A stretch of 12,061 bases of DNA from a virus (taxonomy: Duplodnaviria > Heunggongvirae > Uroviricota > Caudoviricetes), in the IMG/VR virus record IMGVR_UViG_2574180227_000017; one strand, 5' to 3'. A program made the position numbers and the translations under genes. Below, piece after piece: positions 2,636-12,061 of this stretch. Below the pieces are notes generated by a model that saw only the letters and a program-made list of their open reading frames with translations, was not told the origin of the DNA and ran no database searches. Within the stretch, counting starts at the first letter, position 1. Each line of letters begins with the position of its first letter.

Positions 2636-3194
2636 TATGGTTGCCGTAAATCATATACCACACCTTGTACACACACAAACGGCCTTTGTGTGGCGTTTTC
2701 TGGCACTGAGTGCCGGAGAAAAAAACCGCTTGATCGCCACCAGCAAAAATGGCTATGATTCCCGCGCACCTCATAAAACGGGTGTCGGGATTAGCCTCCT
2801 GAAAACAACTGAAGCGCACAGCACGCGCCCCGCGTGTTTTTTTGTGCCGCATAGTCACACCTTATCAATGGTGGGCTGTACGGGGGCGGAGCAATCCGCG
2901 CCGGTTTCTTCAGTGTCCGGTAAGGCTAACCCTGTACAGTCCGCCACCAGCGAAATTAGCCTTTTGCGTGGCGGTTATCTTAACCACACTGAGGAGGCTG
3001 CCAACATGGCTACTATCCCTACCCTTGTACATTCTCAAACCGCATTTATCTGGCGCTTTATCATCTTTGGCGCGTCAGAATCTCAAATCATCCACGTAAC
3101 CGCCTGGACGGAACGCGAAGCGCGTAGCCGTTGCCCGTCCGGTTGTGTTGCTGTATTCGCCGCCCGTATTCGTCAGGGGTCACATCATGCGTAA
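2636..3194 (+). CDS. hypothetical protein with C-terminal ~60-aa module, possibly Icd-like (internal SD+ATG at 3006 could express the module alone)
   Basis: SD TAGGAG before ATG 2636 and SD GAGGAGG before in-frame ATG 3006. C-terminal module MATIPTLVHSQTAFIWRF...TEREAR...FAARIRQG is paralogous to the C-terminus of ORF 3187-3654, and a degenerate copy (HLVHTQTAFVWRF) sits near the N-terminus. Differences between copies are enriched for synonymous changes. Confidence 0.4.
2822..2843 (+). terminator. intrinsic terminator-like hairpin inside the leader/ORF (possible attenuator)
   Basis: CACGCG-CCC-CGCGTG followed by TTTTTTT. A related G-TTTTTTT-GTG element recurs at about 3310-3325. Confidence 0.45.
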
Positions 3195-3654
3195 AAACCG
3201 CTTGCAAAAAATTATCACGGGGCTGTATGCTTCCCCCGTCGCCCACATGGCGACCGGGTTTGACAGCCTGAATACTACAGCGGACAGCCGCTTACATTCC
3301 GATATGCGGTTTTTTTGTGTCCGTAAACCTACCCATACCCGCATTATGGCGGGGCGTAACGGGGGAGCCTTTGCGCTCGCTGGTTCCTGTAGTGCCAGTC
3401 TGTCAACCCTGTTACGTCTCGCCACCATGTTTGACAGCGTAGTAGCGAGACTCCTTAATTTCACTACAGGAGCCTTTCACATGGCTGTATTCGCACGCCC
3501 TTATTTTGTCTGGCGCTTTATGCAGTGCCTGACAGACAGCATTGCAATATTCACCGTTACCGCTGCCACTGAGCGCGAAGCACGTGCACAGCTGCCGCAC
3601 GCACATCTGATTTTTGTCGCCCGTATTCGTCAGGGGGAAACCTATGCACAATAA
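3187..3654 (+). CDS. hypothetical protein with C-terminal ~58-aa module, possibly Icd-like (internal SD+ATG at 3481)
   Basis: ATG 3187 overlaps the stop of the upstream ORF. C-terminal module MAVFARPYFVWRF...TEREAR...FVARIRQG is paralogous to 3006-3194. The N-terminal half has poor protein-like composition and may be RNA rather than coding. Confidence 0.4.
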   Translation: MRKNRLQKIITGLYASPVAHMATGFDSLNTTADSRLHSDMRFFCVRKPTHTRIMAGRNGGAFALAGSCSASLSTLLRLATMFDSVVARLLNFTTGAFHMAVFARPYFVWRFMQCLTDSIAIFTVTAATEREARAQLPHAHLIFVARIRQGETYAQ

Positions 3655-4096: not shown

Positions 4097-4396
4097 ATGA
4101 AACTTAAATATTCTGGCTTAACTGCCAGTGGCAACACTCACCCTAAATTTACGCGCGGTGATATTTACCGCGACCAGTACGGCGGCACGGTAATGATTAA
4201 GGGCGTGGCGGGACGGTGCGTAACTTACCGCCGTGAAGGTTACGAATATGATTGCGTGATGCCTGTTTATCAGTTCCGGCGTGATTTTTCTCTGGTACAG
4301 ACCGCGCCGCATAACGTGCCCACCAGCAGGGAGAAAGCACGCGCCAATATTCAGGAAATAAAAAAGATGCTTAACGTATTCAGGGGTAAAAAATGA
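4097..4396 (+). CDS. hypothetical protein (99 aa), translationally coupled to the primase gene
   Basis: SD GGAGAA upstream. Stop overlaps the primase ATG (ATGA at 4393-4396). Confidence 0.55.
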   Translation: MKLKYSGLTASGNTHPKFTRGDIYRDQYGGTVMIKGVAGRCVTYRREGYEYDCVMPVYQFRRDFSLVQTAPHNVPTSREKARANIQEIKKMLNVFRGKK

Positions 4397-6141
4397 AACT
4401 GGCACCGAACGTAAAAAAACAGCCACGCGGAATAAAACACAAAGACACAGAGGTAATTATCTTTGCGGGTAGTGATGCCTGGTCACACGCGGAACAATGG
4501 CAGGAGCAGGATGGCCCCGCATCCGGCGATAATGTGCCGCCTGTGTGGCTTGGGCCAAATCAGCTTGCCGAACTTGATGCACTGAAAATTGTTCCGGATG
4601 GAAAAAAACGCGTAAGGCTGTACCAGGCCGGAGAACTGGATTTGGTGGAGACCAAAAAGATTGGTCAGAAGCTGGCGGCGGCAGATATTCAGGACGCAAA
4701 TTTTTACCCCGAAGGAATGCACGTCCAGAAGTGTGAAAACTGGCGGCGCTATCTGAATGCTGAGCGTGAAAATATTGCCGCAGGGCTTACCATGCCGGAG
4801 CAGAAAAATACGCAACTGGCACAAATGGCAGACAGTGAGCGCGCGCAGCTGCTTGCCGAGCGCTTTGATGGCGTTTGTGTGCATCCGGAAAGTGAAATCG
4901 TTCACGTATGGCGCGGCGGGGTATGGTGTCCGGTCAGCACAATGGAACTTAGCCGCGAAATGGTGGCGATCTATTCAGAGCACAGGGCCACTTTCAGCAA
5001 GCGCGTAATCAATAACGCCGTGGAAGCGTTAAAAGTTATTGCCGAACCAATGGGCGAGCCGTCCGGCGATTTGCTGCCGTTTGCCAATGGTGCGCTTGAC
5101 CTGAAAACGGGGGAATTTTCCCCGCACACGCCGGAGAACTGGATCACCACGCACAACGGCATTGAGTACACGCCACCAGCACCAGGGGAGAACATCCGCG
5201 ATAACGCGCCAAACTTTCATAAATGGCTTGAGCACGCAGCCGGAAAAGACCCGCGCAAGATGATGCGTATATGTGCCGCGCTGTACATGATTATGGCGAA
5301 CCGGTACGACTGGCAGATGTTTATTGAGGCCACCGGAGACGGCGGGAGCGGCAAAAGTACATTCACCCACATCGCCAGCCTTTTAGCGGGGAAACAAAAC
5401 ACGGTAAGCGCGGAAATGACATCGCTTGATGATGCTGGTGGGCGTGCGCAGGTTGTCGGGAGTCGTCTTATCGTCCTGGCAGACCAGCCGAAATATACAG
5501 GCGAAGGCACGGGCATCAAGAAAATCACGGGCGGCGACCCCGTGGAAATCAACCCGAAATATGAAAAGCGTTTCACTACGGTAATCAGGGCGGTGGTGCT
5601 GGCGACCAATAACAACCCGATGATATTCACCGAACGGGCCGGAGGCGTGTCACGTCGTCGGGTTATTTTCCGCTTCGACAATATCGTAAGCGAGGCAGAA
5701 AAAGACAGGGAGCTACCGGAAAAGATCGCGGCTGAAATCCCTGTCATTATCCGCCGCTTGCTGGCGAACTTTACCGACCCTGAGAAGGCACGGGCTTTAC
5801 TACTGGAACAGCGTGACGGTGATGAAGCTCTGGCAATAAAGCAACAGACGGATCCGGTTATTGAGTTTTGCCAGTTCCTGAATTTTCTGGAGGAAGCGCG
5901 CGGCCTGATGATGGGTGGCGGTGGCGATTCAGTGAAGTATACGACCAGGAACAGCCTTTACCGCGTCTATCTGGCGTTTATGGCGTACGCAGGCAGGAGC
6001 AAACCGCTAAACGTAAATGACTTTGGCAAGGCTATGAAGCCAGCCGCGAAAGTTTACGGACATGAATATATTACGCGGAAAGTTAAGGGAGTAACGCAGA
6101 CTAACGCAATAACAACAGACGATTGCGACGCGTTTTTATAA
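4393..6141 (+). CDS. replication primase/helicase, P4-alpha-like (D5_N-type domain plus SF3 P-loop NTPase)
   Basis: 582-aa ORF. Walker A GDGGSGKST, Walker B-like LIVLADQ, motif C VVLATNNNP. Followed immediately by an iteron array, as in P4 alpha/ori and PICI pri-rep/ori. Confidence 0.9.
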   Translation: MKLAPNVKKQPRGIKHKDTEVIIFAGSDAWSHAEQWQEQDGPASGDNVPPVWLGPNQLAELDALKIVPDGKKRVRLYQAGELDLVETKKIGQKLAAADIQDANFYPEGMHVQKCENWRRYLNAERENIAAGLTMPEQKNTQLAQMADSERAQLLAERFDGVCVHPESEIVHVWRGGVWCPVSTMELSREMVAIYSEHRATFSKRVINNAVEALKVIAEPMGEPSGDLLPFANGALDLKTGEFSPHTPENWITTHNGIEYTPPAPGENIRDNAPNFHKWLEHAAGKDPRKMMRICAALYMIMANRYDWQMFIEATGDGGSGKSTFTHIASLLAGKQNTVSAEMTSLDDAGGRAQVVGSRLIVLADQPKYTGEGTGIKKITGGDPVEINPKYEKRFTTVIRAVVLATNNNPMIFTERAGGVSRRRVIFRFDNIVSEAEKDRELPEKIAAEIPVIIRRLLANFTDPEKARALLLEQRDGDEALAIKQQTDPVIEFCQFLNFLEEARGLMMGGGGDSVKYTTRNSLYRVYLAFMAYAGRSKPLNVNDFGKAMKPAAKVYGHEYITRKVKGVTQTNAITTDDCDAFL

Positions 6142-7165: not shown

Positions 7166-7346
7166 ACGGGTCCTCCTGGCGGGGTGGGCCTGAACACGGG
7201 GCGGGAGGCGCGGAAAAAAGCGCATTTTTGTGATTTTATCGTCATCATCATCATGAGCGTAATTTATTGTTTTTAATTGTTTTGATGCAAAAAAGATGAT
7301 GGTTTTGGTTAATTTTCGTTCGACATCTTTGCAGGCAGATAAAAAA

Positions 7347-7377
7347 GCCCGATAAGGTCAGAGGTGGCTTATCGGGC
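7347..7377. terminator. hairpin with flanking A/T runs (terminator-like on both strands, stronger on minus)
   Basis: GCCCGATAAG-GTCAGAGGTGG-CTTATCGGGC, preceded by AAAAAA and followed by TTT. Confidence 0.45.
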
Positions 7378-7458
7378 TTTTGCATATGAGGCTTTTTGGT
7401 GCACTGACACACATGATCGGGATAATCATTTCATAATTTGCAACGCAATTCAATATCA

Positions 7459-7510
7459 TTGCACAAAATGCAATCATGATTATAATCATAACTGGATGAA
7501 CATCCAGTTA
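7459..7510 (+). promoter_or_regulatory. capsid-operon promoter (TTGCAC 7459-7464, 16-nt spacer, TATAAT 7481-7486) with palindromic operator ATAACTGGATG-AA-CATCCAGTTAT (7487-7510)
   Basis: Read from the sequence. The -10 lies inside the palindrome ATGATTATAATCAT. The operator overlapping the predicted start has the form CTG-N10-CAG. Confidence 0.45.
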
Positions 7511-7542
7511 TGATTTTTTAAGTCAAAGAGGAATTTCTTACT

Positions 7543-7749
7543 ATGGCTGAAGAGAAAAAAGGCGGTGTTTCGGTGTACATAAGCCCCGACATCGTGAAGG
7601 CGCTCAAGGAACGCCACCAGCAGAACGTAAAAGCAGGCATTGCGGCAGGACTTGATCCGCTGGCGATGGTTGAGCCGTCAACAGGCTGGCAGGTACGCGC
7701 CTATTTACGCGCGGCGCTGGGTATGAATCAGGTTCACGGGGGTGAATAA
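7543..7749 (+). CDS. hypothetical protein (68 aa), first gene of the capsid operon
   Basis: SD AGAGG upstream. Stop overlaps the capsid gene start (TAATG at 7747-7751). Confidence 0.5.
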   Translation: MAEEKKGGVSVYISPDIVKALKERHQQNVKAGIAAGLDPLAMVEPSTGWQVRAYLRAALGMNQVHGGE

Positions 7750-8804
7750 TGACAGTAAAAGCAATAGCACTTAACACTAACCAGCTTTTTGCGTACCTGA
7801 ATCGCGAGGATATTGCGGAATTTAAATTCAGTCCGCTGTTTACCGCGCTGTTTTTCCCGAACGTGGCGACATTCAACACACAGGACATCATGTTAGATAA
7901 CCTGGATATTGAAGAAGTCACTATGTCGGCGTTTTGTTCGCCTATGGTTGGTAGCCAGGTTCAGCGCGATAAAGGGTACGAAACAAGCATTATTCGCCCT
8001 GGCTACATGAAGCCAAAACACGAAATCGATCCATTAAAAACAATAATGCGCATGGCTGGAGAAGATCCGGCACAGCTTAACGACCCTACCTACCGCCGTA
8101 TGCGCCTGATTACTGGCAACATGCGCCGCCAGATAAACGCCATTAAAGCGCGCGTGGAATGGCTGGCGGTGAATGCGATAACGACCGGAAAAAACATCAT
8201 TGAGGGCGAAGGCATAGAACGCTATGAAATCGACTGGAAAATACCGGAAAACTGCATCATAGAGCAGGCCAAGGGTAAAAAATGGTCTGAGCAGGATAAA
8301 GACATACACGACCCAATATATGACATTGAACTATACGCAGATCAGGCAGGTTGCCCCGCCAACGTCATGATTATGGGCGTTGATGTATGGCGCATGTTAC
8401 GCAGCTTTAAAAAATTCCGTGAACTGTACGATCTCTCCCGTGGTTCAGAATCCGCCGCAGAGCTGGCATGTAAAAACCTGGGAGAAGTGGTGAGCTTTAA
8501 AGGCTATCTTGGTGATCTGGCCCTTATCGTCTATTCCGGCAAATACACTGACAGCGACGGCACAGAAAAATATTTCCTTGAGCCTGATTTGCTGGTCCTG
8601 GGCAACACCAACAATAAAGGGCTGGTGGCCTATGGTGCGATTATGGAACAGGAAGCGGTAAGAACGGGCGCAACGCAAAACATGTTTTACCCGAAAAACT
8701 GGATTGAAGACGGCGATCCGGCGATTGAGTACGTGCAGACACACAGCGCACCGCAGCCTGTTCCGGCAGATATTCGCAAATTTGTTACCGTCAAAATTGG
8801 TTAA
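7749..8804 (+). CDS. major capsid protein, lambda gpE family
   Basis: 351 aa. Multiple blocks align with lambda gpE as recalled: FKFSPLFTALFF vs FKFDPLFLRLFF, PGYMKPKHEIDP vs PGYVKPKHEVNP, EDPAQLNDPTYRRMRLI vs EDPQNLADPAYRRRRII, LGDLALIVYSGKY vs YGDVAIVVYSGQY, YPKNWIEDGDPA vs YPKNWVTTGDPA. Confidence 0.92.
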   Translation: MTVKAIALNTNQLFAYLNREDIAEFKFSPLFTALFFPNVATFNTQDIMLDNLDIEEVTMSAFCSPMVGSQVQRDKGYETSIIRPGYMKPKHEIDPLKTIMRMAGEDPAQLNDPTYRRMRLITGNMRRQINAIKARVEWLAVNAITTGKNIIEGEGIERYEIDWKIPENCIIEQAKGKKWSEQDKDIHDPIYDIELYADQAGCPANVMIMGVDVWRMLRSFKKFRELYDLSRGSESAAELACKNLGEVVSFKGYLGDLALIVYSGKYTDSDGTEKYFLEPDLLVLGNTNNKGLVAYGAIMEQEAVRTGATQNMFYPKNWIEDGDPAIEYVQTHSAPQPVPADIRKFVTVKIG

Positions 8805-8815
8805 CGGTGGATTCT

Positions 8816-9151
8816 ATGAACACTCCATACATTGAGTTATTTGCAGGCAGTCAGCAGGTATCAACGACGCTGGTACATTTTGCCGCTGATGCTGGCGTTA
8901 TTCAGGAATTTACCCCGCTGATGCTGGCGGACAATGGCGAGTTTAAGCCGTGGGATGGTCAGGAATCTGGCAAGGCTGTTTATCTGACCTCGTACCCCGT
9001 TGACACGTCGACGCAGAAATCAGCACAGTGCTATAAGACGGGGATATTCAATATCGCCGCCGTTAACTGGCCTGAGAGCGTCGACACCGATGCGAAAAAA
9101 TGCGCCGCCTTTGCGGGTTCTGGCGTATCCGTTCAGCCGCTGGCCCGATAA
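8816..9151 (+). CDS. head decoration protein, lambda gpD family (alternative GTG start at 8807)
   Basis: About 111 aa. Conserved gpD blocks TPLML, WDG, YKTGIF (lambda YKSGTF), WPE, KK.AAFAG. SD GGTGGA before ATG 8816. Confidence 0.85.
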   Translation: MNTPYIELFAGSQQVSTTLVHFAADAGVIQEFTPLMLADNGEFKPWDGQESGKAVYLTSYPVDTSTQKSAQCYKTGIFNIAAVNWPESVDTDAKKCAAFAGSGVSVQPLAR

Positions 9152-9163
9152 GCAGGGGGAACG

Positions 9164-9577
9164 ATGGCAACGAATGAAAGCATCATGGCGCTACCGCTGG
9201 CGAGTAAATTTAAAGCCGAAGCGCGGGCAATGGCTGACAGAGGGTTATCAACCTACGAGGCCGTATATCAACTCAACAAACTGGAAGAACAGGACAAGCC
9301 GCGCGCTGATGCGATTATGGCGCTTCATGAACATAACGACTATCAGCCGCTGTTACGTGCAATGGCAAACGTGCCATGTATTAGCGTCGATAATGCTCGT
9401 GAAATCCTGAACATGACCATAGAGCAGGAGCGCCCAAAGGTTGCACCAGAGCTTACCGCAGCCTTTGAAAACTTTATGGACATGCACAGCCCGCAAGCCG
9501 TATCAGCTGGCATGGCGTACGATGGCAGAAACCAGGGCGATGACGGCGACATCGATCGCATACTGAAAACCATCTGA
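9164..9577 (+). CDS. hypothetical protein (137 aa), last gene before cos
   Basis: ORF with SD GGGGGAA upstream, followed by a terminator. Similar in size and position to a head-completion or packaging accessory protein, but no motif recognised. Confidence 0.5.
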   Translation: MATNESIMALPLASKFKAEARAMADRGLSTYEAVYQLNKLEEQDKPRADAIMALHEHNDYQPLLRAMANVPCISVDNAREILNMTIEQERPKVAPELTAAFENFMDMHSPQAVSAGMAYDGRNQGDDGDIDRILKTI

Positions 9578-9583
9578 GACAAG

Positions 9584-9607
9584 GCCGGAGAAATCCGGCT
9601 TTTTTTT
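9584..9607 (+). terminator. rho-independent terminator
   Basis: GCCGGA-GAAA-TCCGGC followed by TTTTTTTT. Copy of the terminator at 7143. Confidence 0.7.
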
Positions 9608-9608
9608 A

Positions 9609-9675
9609 CGGGTCCTTTCCGGCATATGGACCCGTTACGGGGCGGCGACCTCGCGGTTTTTCGCTATTTATGAGC
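9609..9675 (+). other. cos site: cosN 12-nt cohesive-end sequence GGGCGGCGACCT at 9640-9651 with lambda-like flanks
   Basis: ACGGGTCCTTTCCGG...GTTACG-GGGCGGCGACCT-CGCGGTTTTTCGCTATTTATGA matches the lambda right-end/left-end junction as recalled (…GTTACG | GGGCGGCGACCT | CGCGGGTTTTCGCTATTTATGA…). Sequence after about 9675 diverges from lambda cosB. Confidence 0.75.
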
Positions 9676-9799
9676 CTTTTCAGGGGGGTGGTGGTGGTTT
9701 TGTTGTTTGCTCTATCTTTATGAATGAAAAGGGAAAGATGCAAACAATACACCAACCTGAAGCAGTAATTAAGTTGGTGTATTAATGAAATCGCACCTG

Positions 9800-10327
9800 A
9801 TGAACAAAAAAAACATGGCGAAAAGCTGCCGTGTAAGTGCGACAGCGTTCGACAAGTGGGGAGTGACTCCCGTTGAACGTAAAGGCCGTGAGGCGTTTTA
9901 TGATGTTGCCAGCGTGATAGACAATAGGGTTAACAATGCAATTAGCCAGCTTACAAACGACAAAGGCGATATTGACGATGATGAACTATTACGAGTCAGG
10001 ATCAGATTACTGACAGCGCAGGCGGAGGCGCAGGAGCTTAAAAACGAGCGCGAACGAGGCGACGTTATTGATACAGGGTTTTGCCTGTACGCGCTTTCAA
10101 AGCTGGCGAGCCAGATTTCTTCAATCATGGACAGCATCCCGCTTACTATGCAAAGGAGCTTTCCACACATTACCCCAGCCATGCTGGATGGGCTTAAAAG
10201 GGAAGTGGTTAAAGCCTGTAATGCCAGTGCCAGAGTTGCCGACAACCTCCCACAGATACTGGCTGATTACTTGAAAGAAACAACCGGAAACGTACCGGAA
10301 AAGTTGCAGCAGAATAAAGATAAGTAA
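9800..10327 (+). CDS. terminase small subunit, lambda Nu1 family (start taken at MNKKN by alignment; ORF track start 9785)
   Basis: Aligns with lambda Nu1 over its full length: NKK start, YD.A.VI, RLLTAQAEAQELKNERERGDVIDTGFCLYALSKLASQISSIMDSIPLTMQRSFP vs RLTRAQADAQELKNARDSAEVVETAFCTFVLSRIAGEIASILDGLPLSVQRRFP. The N-terminal DNA-recognition segment is the most diverged. Confidence 0.8.
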   Translation: MNKKNMAKSCRVSATAFDKWGVTPVERKGREAFYDVASVIDNRVNNAISQLTNDKGDIDDDELLRVRIRLLTAQAEAQELKNERERGDVIDTGFCLYALSKLASQISSIMDSIPLTMQRSFPHITPAMLDGLKREVVKACNASARVADNLPQILADYLKETTGNVPEKLQQNKDK

Positions 10328-10338
10328 CGTAGTACGCT

Positions 10339-10620
10339 ATGACTGAATCCGAAATACTGCGATTAATCCGCCGCGTCTCTGGAATCAGCCAGCAGGCTGA
10401 CGAACAGACCACGCAGCCGGACAGCGTGACAGCCGAAAACTATGCGCGTGTGGTTGCTGAGGTGATGCGCCGTGATGGTATCCAGCTTAATGATGTGGAT
10501 ATGCGCGACATACGGATCCGCGTTCTTGAAATGCTGGCCTACAATCGCCGCGTTGAGATGTATCGGGAGAAAGAAAAAATAACGTACCACTGGAAGAAGC
10601 CGGAGCGGTTGCGGCGGTAA
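10339..10620 (+). CDS. hypothetical protein (93 aa) in the position where lambda has terminase large subunit gpA
   Basis: ORF 11 nt downstream of the Nu1-like stop. Weak resemblance of residues about 5-40 to the gpA N-terminus (LRLIRRVSG / NRLRHFVRAG; VTAENYA / VEWADANYY). Not conclusive. Confidence 0.4.
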   Translation: MTESEILRLIRRVSGISQQADEQTTQPDSVTAENYARVVAEVMRRDGIQLNDVDMRDIRIRVLEMLAYNRRVEMYREKEKITYHWKKPERLRR

Positions 10621-10677
10621 CTGGTTGATATTTTCGGAAACCTCAATTTGAGGAGGCCGGAAGCGTCACCCTTTAGA

Positions 10678-10962
10678 TTCTGAATGGTGATAATCACCAC
10701 GCCCAATCGTGACGGAGAGTGACAGCCAGTGACACGCCGTGACAAAAGACGGTTTAACCGTTAATTAAAAATCGACGGGATTTTGTGTTTTCCGGACGAC
10801 GTAGCCAACGTCATTTTTTAGCGAAAAATTCTGATTAAGGTCATTGTCTGAATGGTCATAATGACCACGCAGACCATCAAGGCAACCATAACGATTTTCG
10901 TTACGGTTGATGTGTGCCTTCGTCCGGCATTCGGACGATATAAGGGATGGTCATAATGACCA
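10678..10962. repeat. three copies of a palindromic motif TGAATGGT(G/C)ATAAT(G/C)ACCAC (10681-10700, 10848-10870, 10945-10964)
   Basis: Near-identical 20-24 bp units read directly. Cores TGGTGATAATCACCA and TGGTCATAATGACCA (x2) are imperfect palindromes about an odd centre. Confidence 0.6.
10709..10743 (+). repeat. four GTGAC pentamers at exact 10-bp spacing (10709, 10719, 10729, 10739)
   Basis: GTGACGGAGA GTGACAGCCA GTGACACGCC GTGACAAAAG. Helically phased direct repeats. Confidence 0.6.
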
Positions 10963-11575: not shown

Positions 11576-12061
11576 TCAGAACGTCCAGACCACACCCGCC
11601 TGAGTTGTGCTGCTTTCTTCACGGGAGAAACGGCTGTCGATACCGAGCGTCAGGCCCGTCAATGTTTGCTCAAAGCCAGCTCCCGCATCAGTGTTCACGT
11701 TGTTGCGGCTGTTAATTACCGAACTCCACATCGCCGTATCGTAATTAACGCCTTTTACGCTACCAAGACGCCCACGCACGGTGTCCAGTTCTGCATCAAA
11801 TACCAGCGGTTGTGCTGCCGCCATATTCAGCACATCCGTGGTTGAAGGGGGCATTTGTACGCGATTCTCTGCGAGACTCCAGCTATGGTTGCCATTATCC
11901 AGCAAGGTATATTCATACGTACTGATATCAACAACGCTTCCGGCATTGCCCAACGTAAATGCCGCATCACCGCGCCCTCCTTTAATCGTGGGATCAGTCG
12001 CCGCGCCATAAACCTGTAGCACTCCATTATTGATCGTAGTCTGGTTTACCGCGCCACCCAT
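11576..12061 (-). CDS. 3' portion of an autotransporter-like (type V secretion, Ag43/AIDA-like) gene; ORF runs off the window at its 5' side
   Basis: Passenger-like repeats (GGAVNQTTINNGVLQVYGAATDPTIKGG). YTLLDNGNHSWSLAEN resembles the Ag43 junction motif YSLNRDSDESWYLRSE as recalled. Ends in the aromatic terminus VWTF typical of outer-membrane beta-barrels, but only about 95 aa follow the junction motif, so the beta-domain looks too short. Confidence 0.45.
   Translation of the reverse strand: MGGAVNQTTINNGVLQVYGAATDPTIKGGRGDAAFTLGNAGSVVDISTYEYTLLDNGNHSWSLAENRVQMPPSTTDVLNMAAAQPLVFDAELDTVRGRLGSVKGVNYDTAMWSSVINSRNNVNTDAGAGFEQTLTGLTLGIDSRFSREESSTTQAGVVWTF

Follow-up and report, generated by a model that had tools for sequence, protein, structure and literature searches.

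The DNA analysed here, a 12,061-nt stretch from IMG/VR virus record IMGVR_UViG_2574180227_000017 (hereafter the window), can be assigned to a Gram-negative phage-inducible chromosomal island (PICI) of the EcCICFT073 family, and its packaging module is of an ordinary, widespread E. coli phage-satellite type. In this module a lambda-type cosN is followed by a private cosB and by terS, a gene for a small terminase subunit (TerS) of the Nu1 family. Our preferred reading, to which we assign a probability of about 0.6, is that the satellite TerS binds the private cosB and recruits the large terminase subunit (TerL) of a helper phage to the lambda-type cosN. After helper-phage induction, TerS would bind cosB through the winged helix-turn-helix (HTH) at its N-terminus. 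The binding site would be an equivalent of lambda R3 at bp 51-68 (counted from the cohesive end), possibly together with an inverted, R2-like partner that lies beyond an AT-rich bend, at bp 101-118. The C-terminal region of TerS would dock the helper's lambda-type TerL (gpA), which would nick cosN, package the concatemer and stop at the next cosQ/cosN. The open reading frame (ORF) of 93 aa downstream of terS would be a separate conserved backbone gene. Because a satellite protein would then provide both DNA recognition and TerL docking, the helper TerS should not be needed.

Several comparisons argue for this reading. The cosB-terS pair is an exchangeable cassette, cosQ, cosN and bp 13-35 match lambda, and the DNA-binding domain (DBD) of TerS is conserved across genera together with the R3-like element. 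The C-terminus is variable and exchangeable, as in the chimera of locus L012; phage N15 offers a match to the module; and terS is abundant and under purifying selection. In addition, the element has no terL, a relative (locus L094) resides in a prophage with a lambda terminase, and no phage cosB matches that of the window. A first-pass annotation, made from the window's letters, had likewise suggested that TerS recruits a helper TerL to its own cos. The co-conservation of DBD and cosB, the exchangeable C-terminus, the lack of terL and L094 fit that suggestion comparatively, and it stands as a prediction. Overall, the observations of that annotation were partly confirmed and its interpretation was partly supported.

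Exchange of the packaging cassette

Direct comparison with EcCICFT073 (NC_004431, locus L004) was, in our view, decisive for the PICI assignment. Window positions 7341-9681 and 10339-10639 showed 94% and 92% nucleotide identity to EcCICFT073, respectively, and the interval between them, 9682-10338, which contains cosB and terS, was the sole compared stretch with no EcCICFT073 counterpart. The same slot holds cosB1, the 144-aa rppA and an inverted cos2 in EcCICFT073. Because cosB and terS replace these three in an otherwise matching backbone, they form an alternative cassette at the rppA address. With at least 80% coverage required, the cosB-terS cassette was found in 763 of 5,426 complete E. 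coli genomes (~14%). The EcCICFT073 rppA cassette was detected by megablast in 53 of the 5,426, a count that does not include RppB and RppC variants. Of the related loci used below, 3 came from a scan of genome contigs and most from a scan of IMG/VR.

The gap between terS and the 93-aa ORF is either ~15 nt, as in the window, or ~260 nt in relatives. The ~260-nt gaps hold an inverted, complete phage-type cos2, in which cosQ and cosN are accompanied by a cosB containing three R sequences. These R sequences fall into at least two families, 21-like (like the 21-type prophage of CFT073) or other. Such a cos2 was seen in L020-L026 and ~30 other IMG/VR loci, and none was present in window 10328-10338. 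Islands with cos2 would thus carry one private and one helper-type cos, and the window either lost cos2 or never had it.

The cos2 sites bear on the idea that this TerS homologue is an interference factor, which would titrate or mis-target the helper TerL and lower helper yield, the island itself being packaged by the helper terminase from a phage-type cos. The inverted cos2 of many relatives would suit this idea, as its complete phage-type cosB could be used by an unmodified helper terminase. However, the window is without cos2 and its only cos has the private cosB. The joint cross-genus conservation of the DBD and the R3-like element also speaks for specific recognition of DNA and against simple titration, and transfer of EcCICFT073 requires cos1, its private-cosB site (PMC6739421). 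We regard interference as distinctly improbable.

Lambda-type cosQ and cosN

The window holds a single copy of the 12-nt cohesive end GGGCGGCGACCT, at 9640-9651 (+ strand), and this sequence is identical to that of lambda. In an alignment with the circularised lambda cos, the match begins at TTTACGGGTCCTTTCCGG and, after a short variable stretch, continues with GTTACG, GGGCGGCGACCT and CGCGG(T/G)TTTTCGCTATTTATGA (bp 13-34). Beyond ~bp 35-42, counted from the cohesive end, the window no longer resembles lambda. The lambda identity of cosN and its immediate flanks, as described in the first-pass annotation, was thereby confirmed. We placed cosQ at 9610-9624 (+), with its core GGGTCCT at 9610-9616 and the conserved block GGGTCCTTTC(C/G)GGCA. 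The core spans exactly positions -30 to -24 relative to the cosN nick, which is the lambda spacing, with lambda cosQ taken by us to lie at lambda coordinates 48473-48479. The window thus has the parts of a lambda-type cos: a 12-nt cosN with conserved flanks and a cosQ ~30 bp upstream. The spacer that follows cosN, CGCGGTTTTTCGCTATTTATGAG at 9652-9674 (bp 13-35, +), is common to lambda, N15 and EcCICFT073 cos1.

The cos regions of E. coli and distant satellites (8 satellite sequences) were then aligned (alignment A3). The invariant blocks in A3 were cosQ, the start of cosN (TACGGGGCG), CGCTATTTATGAG within the spacer (in all 8 sequences), an R3-like block and an R2-like block, and the flanks varied freely. 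Cloned cos sites of EcCICFT073 confer lambda/phi80-mediated transfer on plasmids (PMC6092414, PMC6739421). Their cosQ and cosN are essentially the same as those of the window, and by analogy they support the feasibility of its module.

R-like elements in a cosB without phage relatives

Among 50,697 phage records, none matched the window beyond ~bp 46, and no lambda R sequences (CGTTTCC-type) were present in the window cosB. The divergence from lambda cosB reported by the first-pass annotation is therefore real, and this cosB is unrelated to that of lambda or to any other in the phage collection. The same annotation had placed a G-rich tract at 9664-9678; the tract (GGGGGGTGGTGGTGG) exists, at 9683-9697. 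Its conserved portion gives a candidate R3 equivalent, GGTGGTGGTTTTGTTGTT, at 9690-9707 (bp 51-68, +). The pattern GGTGGTGGT.TTGTT.TT at bp 51-68, in which GGTGGTGGT itself occupies 9690-9698 (bp 51-59) of the window, was invariant in satellites of E. coli, Citrobacter/Enterobacter type, Kosakonia and Superficieibacter. The position of the element is that of N15 R3 GAGGTTGTTGTTT (bp 48-60) and of lambda R3 (bp 50-65), and it is also where Murialdo and Feiss placed the PICI R3 (bp 48-65) (PMC9026076).

A candidate R2 equivalent, the inverted partner of the R3-like element, lies at 9740-9757 (bp 101-118, - strand). Its core AATACACC(A/C)AC at 9746-9758 (bp 107-119) is conserved across genera in A3. 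The R3-like and R2-like arms (18 nt each, 9693-9710 and 9740-9757) are 78% complementary, and 11 of 1000 shuffles were as good. A third, R1-like copy, GTTGGTGTATT at 9773-9783 (+), ends 2 nt before the terS ATG and forms the right arm of an inverted repeat. This repeat had been noted as 9 bp at 9748-9756/9773-9781 and extends to a perfect 11 bp (9746-9756/9773-9783, 100% complementary), which only 1 of 1000 dinucleotide shuffles equalled. The three related copies, which stand out above these shuffles, are oriented +, -, + like R3-R2-R1 of lambda.

A possible but weak equivalent of I1, a site for integration host factor (IHF), lies between the R3-like and R2-like elements at 9713-9725 (-). TGA.T at this position was invariant in A3, and two relatives (L006 and L009) have IHF-consensus matches with 1-2 mismatches at bp 74-86 of the minus strand, where lambda I1 lies. 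A scan of the window with the IHF consensus gave no convincing I1 site.

The R3-like element also relates the two cassettes to each other. The sequence ACCACCACC at bp 55-63 is conserved in four PICIs (PMC9026076). This Rpp-type R3 core, found at bp 55-63 of EcCICFT073 cos1 (L004 2613-2621), is the exact reverse complement of GGTGGTGGT. Because the two stand in this inverse relation at nearly the same position, the cassettes may share an origin, cross-recognise each other's cos sites or compete for them.

Domain structure and selection of TerS

The terS gene (9785-10327, +) encodes a 180-aa Nu1-family small terminase of N15 type. The protein matched PF07471 over residues 33-148 (81.1 bits, with the curated threshold at 30) and phrog_57 (residues 1-178, E 1.9e-52) and was 34% identical to lambda Nu1 (E 2e-33), which agrees with its first description as Nu1-like. 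Its best phage match was N15 gp1 (46.6% identity), with which it shared a short architecture and the recognition-helix motif AFDKWG in a multiple alignment. The gene after terS is the 93-aa ORF, with no adjacent overlapping terL, and no large terminase (terL/gpA-like) ORF was found anywhere in the window.

Identity to lambda Nu1 and N15 gp1 was 28% and 60% in the DBD (residues 1-48), 47% and 47% in the central domain (70-135), and 32% and 35% in the C-terminus (136-166), respectively. The C-terminal segment is the stretch that aligned with the TerL-binding end of lambda TerS; it carries the motif (L/I)P..L..Y(L/I) and is presumed to dock TerL. The part conserved relative to lambda is thus the central oligomerisation domain. 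In the first-pass annotation, the N-terminus was the most diverged and the C-terminus the conserved part. Against lambda, where the DBD was 28% identical, the claim of a conserved C-terminal part was only roughly right, as the C-terminus itself reached just 32%, compared with 47% in the central domain. Within the satellite clade the described pattern failed, as the DBD was the most and the C-terminus the least conserved part.

The dN/dS ratio of terS was 0.15 overall and 0.08 in the DBD, values that point to purifying selection. Both dN and dS were raised in the C-terminal part, which suggests that this part is mosaic. In a structure model of TerS, the order of elements (helix 8-15, helix 21-25, beta-hairpin 31-40, helix 41-56) would fit a winged HTH at the N-terminus, with a central helical domain after it, and the sequence of this region aligns with the DBDs of lambda and N15. 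The confidence of the model was low (predicted local distance difference test, pLDDT, 61), and a Foldseek search of the Protein Data Bank (PDB) returned only weak MerR-like matches (E 0.08-0.9); for these reasons we did not take the model as proof of the fold. PDB sequence searches with TerS, the 137-aa protein encoded upstream of cos and the 93-aa ORF gave no relevant match, and neither the Nu1 DBD nor RppC was retrieved.

The central domain of TerS was its most similar part to lambda and 21-type TerS (47-48%), and this similarity favours the main rival explanation. According to it, the satellite TerS would act like Rpp: it would co-assemble with the helper TerS through the central domain, block helper packaging and retarget the mixed complex to the satellite cosB, so that the helper TerS would still be required. 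Rpp, the product of the sister cassette in the same slot, does act through TerS heterodimers (PMC6739421). In contrast to Rpp, which has 139-154 aa and no C-terminal TerL-binding region (PMC9026076), the window TerS keeps the full-length Nu1 architecture. The lambda-type C-terminal half of the L012 protein, described below, makes sense only if the satellite protein contacts TerL. In addition, TerS showed no similarity to RppA, with no BLASTP alignment at E <= 100. We consider the heteromer unlikely, and direct recruitment of the helper TerL by the satellite TerS is the reading that we carry forward.

Membership of TerS in the Rpp family was rejected, given its lack of RppA similarity, its length of 180 aa and its Nu1-type central and C-terminal regions. 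The first-pass annotation had stated that E. coli PICIs redirect packaging through a TerS-interacting protein, Rpp, and had set the apparently complete TerS of this element against it. That statement was correct, and the contrast holds: terS occupies the rppA slot, and its product lacks RppA similarity.

Relatives in other enterobacterial satellites

The nearest TerS relatives outside E. coli (56-60% identity) came from records named Citrobacter, Enterobacter, Kosakonia and Superficieibacter. All were in satellites with the gene order major capsid protein (MCP)-decoration-x-cos-terS, and most of them are helper-embedded satellites, integrated in gene E of a lambdoid prophage (bioRxiv 10.1101/2022.07.18.500453). 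In comparison with these relatives, the DBD was the most conserved part of TerS (71-79%) and the C-terminus the least (29-39%); across satellite genera the identities were 71-96% and 29-68%, respectively. The module was always found within a PICI or helper-embedded-satellite gene order.

The TerS of one Superficieibacter satellite (L012, 2501-3004) is a natural chimera of a satellite DBD and a C-terminal half that resembles lambda Nu1. Its identity to lambda Nu1 is 50% overall, with near identity over residues 97-167. In the classical lambda-21 chimeras, cosB specificity resides in the N-terminal half of TerS and TerL specificity in the C-terminal half (PMC9026076).

Recognition helix and R3 repeat also differ together between phages and satellites. 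In phage-borne TerS of N15 type (N15 and L013, a marine N15-type prophage), the recognition helix contains Q and goes with GTT repeats, whereas the satellite TerS have T and GGT repeats, with the R3 reading GGTGGTGGT. R3 reads GGTTGTTTAGTT in L013 and GTTGTTGTT in N15, the latter at the same coordinates as the satellite element. These few sequences hint at a specificity switch from Q to T and from GTT to GGT, a hint that comes from a small sample.

The distance from cosN to the terS ATG was constant at 145 nt across 84 related loci, with cosB and TerS conserved, and the cosN 12-mer took at least nine forms among the relatives (L048, L060, L082, L084, L094 and others). At least one variant, GGGCGGAAGGCG, is shared with PhiR46_1, a lambda-like phage whose cosB and Nu1 are those of lambda. 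Co-variation of cosN type with the TerS C-terminus was considered and rejected, as the same C-terminus occurred with four different 12-mers.

A broader proposal would extend the preferred reading to all these elements. Satellites in at least five enterobacterial genera would share one private specificity derived from N15, consisting of a DBD with ..TAFDKWG and a GGT-repeat R3 at bp 51-59 and including the Q-to-T/GTT-to-GGT switch. The TerL-docking C-terminus and cosN would be swapped to suit local helpers, packaging would be independent of the helper TerS, and the Rpp and TerS cassettes may have a common origin, cross-recognise or compete. We put this forward tentatively, as a possibility with the odds somewhat against it.

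Observations against recruitment by TerS

Several observations weigh against the recruitment of a helper TerL by the satellite TerS. At the protein level, identity to the TerS of lambda and N15 is only 32-35% at the extreme C-terminus, which also bears an extra 14-aa tail, so that docking of lambda gpA by TerS can only be proposed, and the AlphaFold model has the pLDDT of 61 given above. In cosB, the R1-like arm is conserved only in close E. coli relatives, and its functional role is doubtful for that reason; the I1 equivalent of the window has at least three mismatches to the IHF consensus. Expression of terS is a further point. A terminator-like hairpin with a T-run (9581-9602, +; 9-pair stem with 5 GC pairs and a T tail) follows the 137-aa ORF just 5′ of cos, and no sigma-70-like promoter was predicted between this hairpin and terS. 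Speculatively, terS may be expressed by read-through, antitermination or autoregulation.

The remaining points concern the helper. Two E. coli islands that encode TerS (IHE3034 and 18098) were not mobilised by resident prophages (Fillol-Salom et al. 2018, PMC6092414), and thus no helper is known. In locus L094 (strain UID2309220041), a TerS-type satellite is embedded in gene E of a prophage that has essentially the cos, the Nu1 and the first 60 gpA residues of lambda. When the two cos regions were compared (4981-5170 and 20096-20240), 6 of the 12 positions of the satellite cosN GGGCGTCAGGCG differed from the cosN of the embedding prophage. Either a properly anchored TerL accepts such variation in cosN, or this prophage is not the helper. 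Murialdo and Feiss argue that tolerance of cosN variation by TerL is plausible when the enzyme is anchored.

Comparison with known packaging systems

The closest system is cos1-rppA of EcCICFT073 (Fillol-Salom 2018, 2019), which has the same backbone, cosQ, cosN, spacing and downstream 93-aa ORF. In both islands the private cosB is immediately followed by a specificity gene. The genes differ, as Rpp has 144 aa and the window encodes a full-length Nu1-family TerS of 180 aa with no detectable similarity to it. The window TerS is predicted to contact TerL directly, whereas Rpp borrows the helper TerS, and the window lacks the inverted cos2.

Phage N15 has the closest phage TerS, with the same short-linker architecture, AFDKWG and an R3 of T/G trinucleotide repeats at bp ~50-60. 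It differs in its GTT repeats and Q, as opposed to the GGT repeats and T of the satellites. In addition, its cosB consists of one R3 in 77 bp, with terL next to it, whereas the window cosB is 133 bp long with an inverted second copy and no terL. With lambda the window shares an identical cosQ and cosN and possibly the layout R3-(bend)-inverted R2-R1-like, and the L012 chimera of DBD and C-terminus parallels the lambda-21 hybrids (PMC9026076). Unlike lambda, the window has neither lambda R sequences nor an adjacent gpA gene, and its DBD is only 28% identical.

The principle would resemble that of TerS from Staphylococcus aureus pathogenicity islands (SaPIs), in which a satellite small terminase works with the helper large terminase on a satellite-specific site. 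SaPI TerS belongs to another protein family and serves headful (pac) packaging, whereas the window module is of cos type, has defined cohesive ends and encodes a Nu1-family protein. The helper-embedded satellites of 11capE type, which hold the nearest TerS relatives outside E. coli and an E. coli relative with 89% identity, have the same MCP-decoration-x-cos-terS order as the window. 11capE as described has no terS (bioRxiv 10.1101/2022.07.18.500453), and the window element is chromosomally integrated. Like the capsid-forming PICIs (cf-PICIs, EcCIEDL933 type), the window encodes a capsid protein and TerS. Those islands additionally carry genes for TerL, portal, protease and head-tail connectors, none of which was present among the window ORFs; membership in the cf-PICIs was rejected on these grounds.

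TerS-encoding Gram-negative PICIs were noted in 2018 and not characterised (PMC6092414), and SatelliteFinder uses terS as a core marker (PMC6092414; bioRxiv 10.1101/2022.09.14.508007). In the searchable literature, whose coverage was incomplete, we found no experimental study of a Nu1-type PICI TerS. To our knowledge, Rpp is the sole E. coli PICI packaging mechanism studied so far. Also not found described in that literature were the N15-type nature of TerS, the cross-genus pair of DBD and R3, the equivalence of rpp and terS cassettes, the natural chimera with a lambda C-terminus, and the inverse-complement relation to the Rpp R3. These points are modest but testable additions. If the preferred reading is true, the majority of E. 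coli cos-PICIs have a simpler way of spreading, in which one protein provides recognition and TerL docking. It would predict independence of the helper TerS, a different helper range, and escape mutations in TerL and not in TerS. The R3-like element and the natural chimera offer a handle on how lambda-type terminases read cosB, and they bear on the engineering of cos-based transducing particles.

The 93-aa ORF

The ORF at 10339-10620 (+), correctly located by the first-pass annotation, matched phrog_1561 (E 1e-55) and had no Pfam match. It shared 90% amino acid identity with the ORF that comes after rppA in EcCICFT073, and it followed terS in 70 of the 72 E. coli-family IMG/VR loci with enough downstream sequence. 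It adjoins terS in the window because the ~260-bp inverted cos2 that separates the two in many relatives is missing here. The first-pass annotation had seen a weak N-terminal resemblance to gpA. This was absent: comparison with gpA gave only an insignificant 14-residue BLASTP match (gpA 310-323, E 0.42), and tblastn found no match in the 50,697 phage records. An exhaustive HMMER search yielded 38 representatives among 1.84 billion proteins, none of them informative, which makes the family an orphan. The protein has a predicted three-helix fold (pLDDT 70), with no significant fold match in PDB or BFVD, and an invariant basic C-terminus, W-KKPERLRR. These comparisons indicate a conserved PICI backbone gene unrelated to gpA. 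The earlier view of an ORF in place of gpA, as its remnant or decoy, was rejected, since the ORF lacks gpA similarity and is also conserved behind rppA.

These results also bear on the possibility that the module is the functionless left end (cos-Nu1-truncated A) of a decaying lambdoid prophage, with the 93-aa ORF as a remnant or decoy of gpA. Such decay would account for the positional analogy to cos-Nu1-A of lambda. Against it, the ORF has no gpA similarity and is conserved also in EcCICFT073, hundreds of genomes carry an intact terS that is under purifying selection, the 50,697 phage records contain neither this cosB nor the TerS clade, and the module always lies in a PICI or helper-embedded-satellite gene order. 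We consider prophage decay to be effectively refuted by the EcCICFT073 comparison, the gpA comparison, the abundance and dN/dS.

Other genes of the window

The window opens with a tyrosine integrase gene (1-1242), as in a chromosomally integrated element. It is followed by an AlpA-like ORF (1739-1945), whose profile score of 17.9 bits is below the cutoff of 21, and by a D5-type primase gene (4393-6141). The remaining genes of the left and middle parts comprise a duplicated C4-RNA/Icd-like region, a DUF4222 protein and a single-stranded DNA-binding protein. Directly 5′ of cos lies a block of head genes (7749-9577, +) with 94% nucleotide identity to c1499-c1501 of EcCICFT073. It encodes a gpE-like major capsid protein (7749-8804, +; PF03864), a gpD-like decoration protein (8807-9151, +; PF02924) and the 137-aa protein (9164-9577, +), which resembles the scaffold end, at the C-terminus, of the lambda-type head protease and matches phrog_53 at positions 494-567 only. 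In EcCICFT073, the capsid genes (c1499-c1501) were reported to be dispensable for transfer (PMC6092414). The order int-alpA-primase-capsid genes-packaging, unidirectional over ~10 kb and without tail or lysis genes, is that of a PICI.

At the Rfam gathering level, isrK was matched at 2766-2842 (+), C4 antisense RNA twice, at 2864-2951 and 3342-3429 (+), and the c4-a1b1 target at 3225-3274, each near an Icd-like reading frame. The region 2766-3429 looks like a duplicated C4-icd immunity-like module of P1/P4 type in the left arm of the PICI. At the other end, homology to other islands stops near 10640-10700. A partial ORF at 11576-12061 (-), with matches to Pertactin and an autotransporter beta-domain, runs off the end of the window and is probably host or accessory DNA past the right end of the island.

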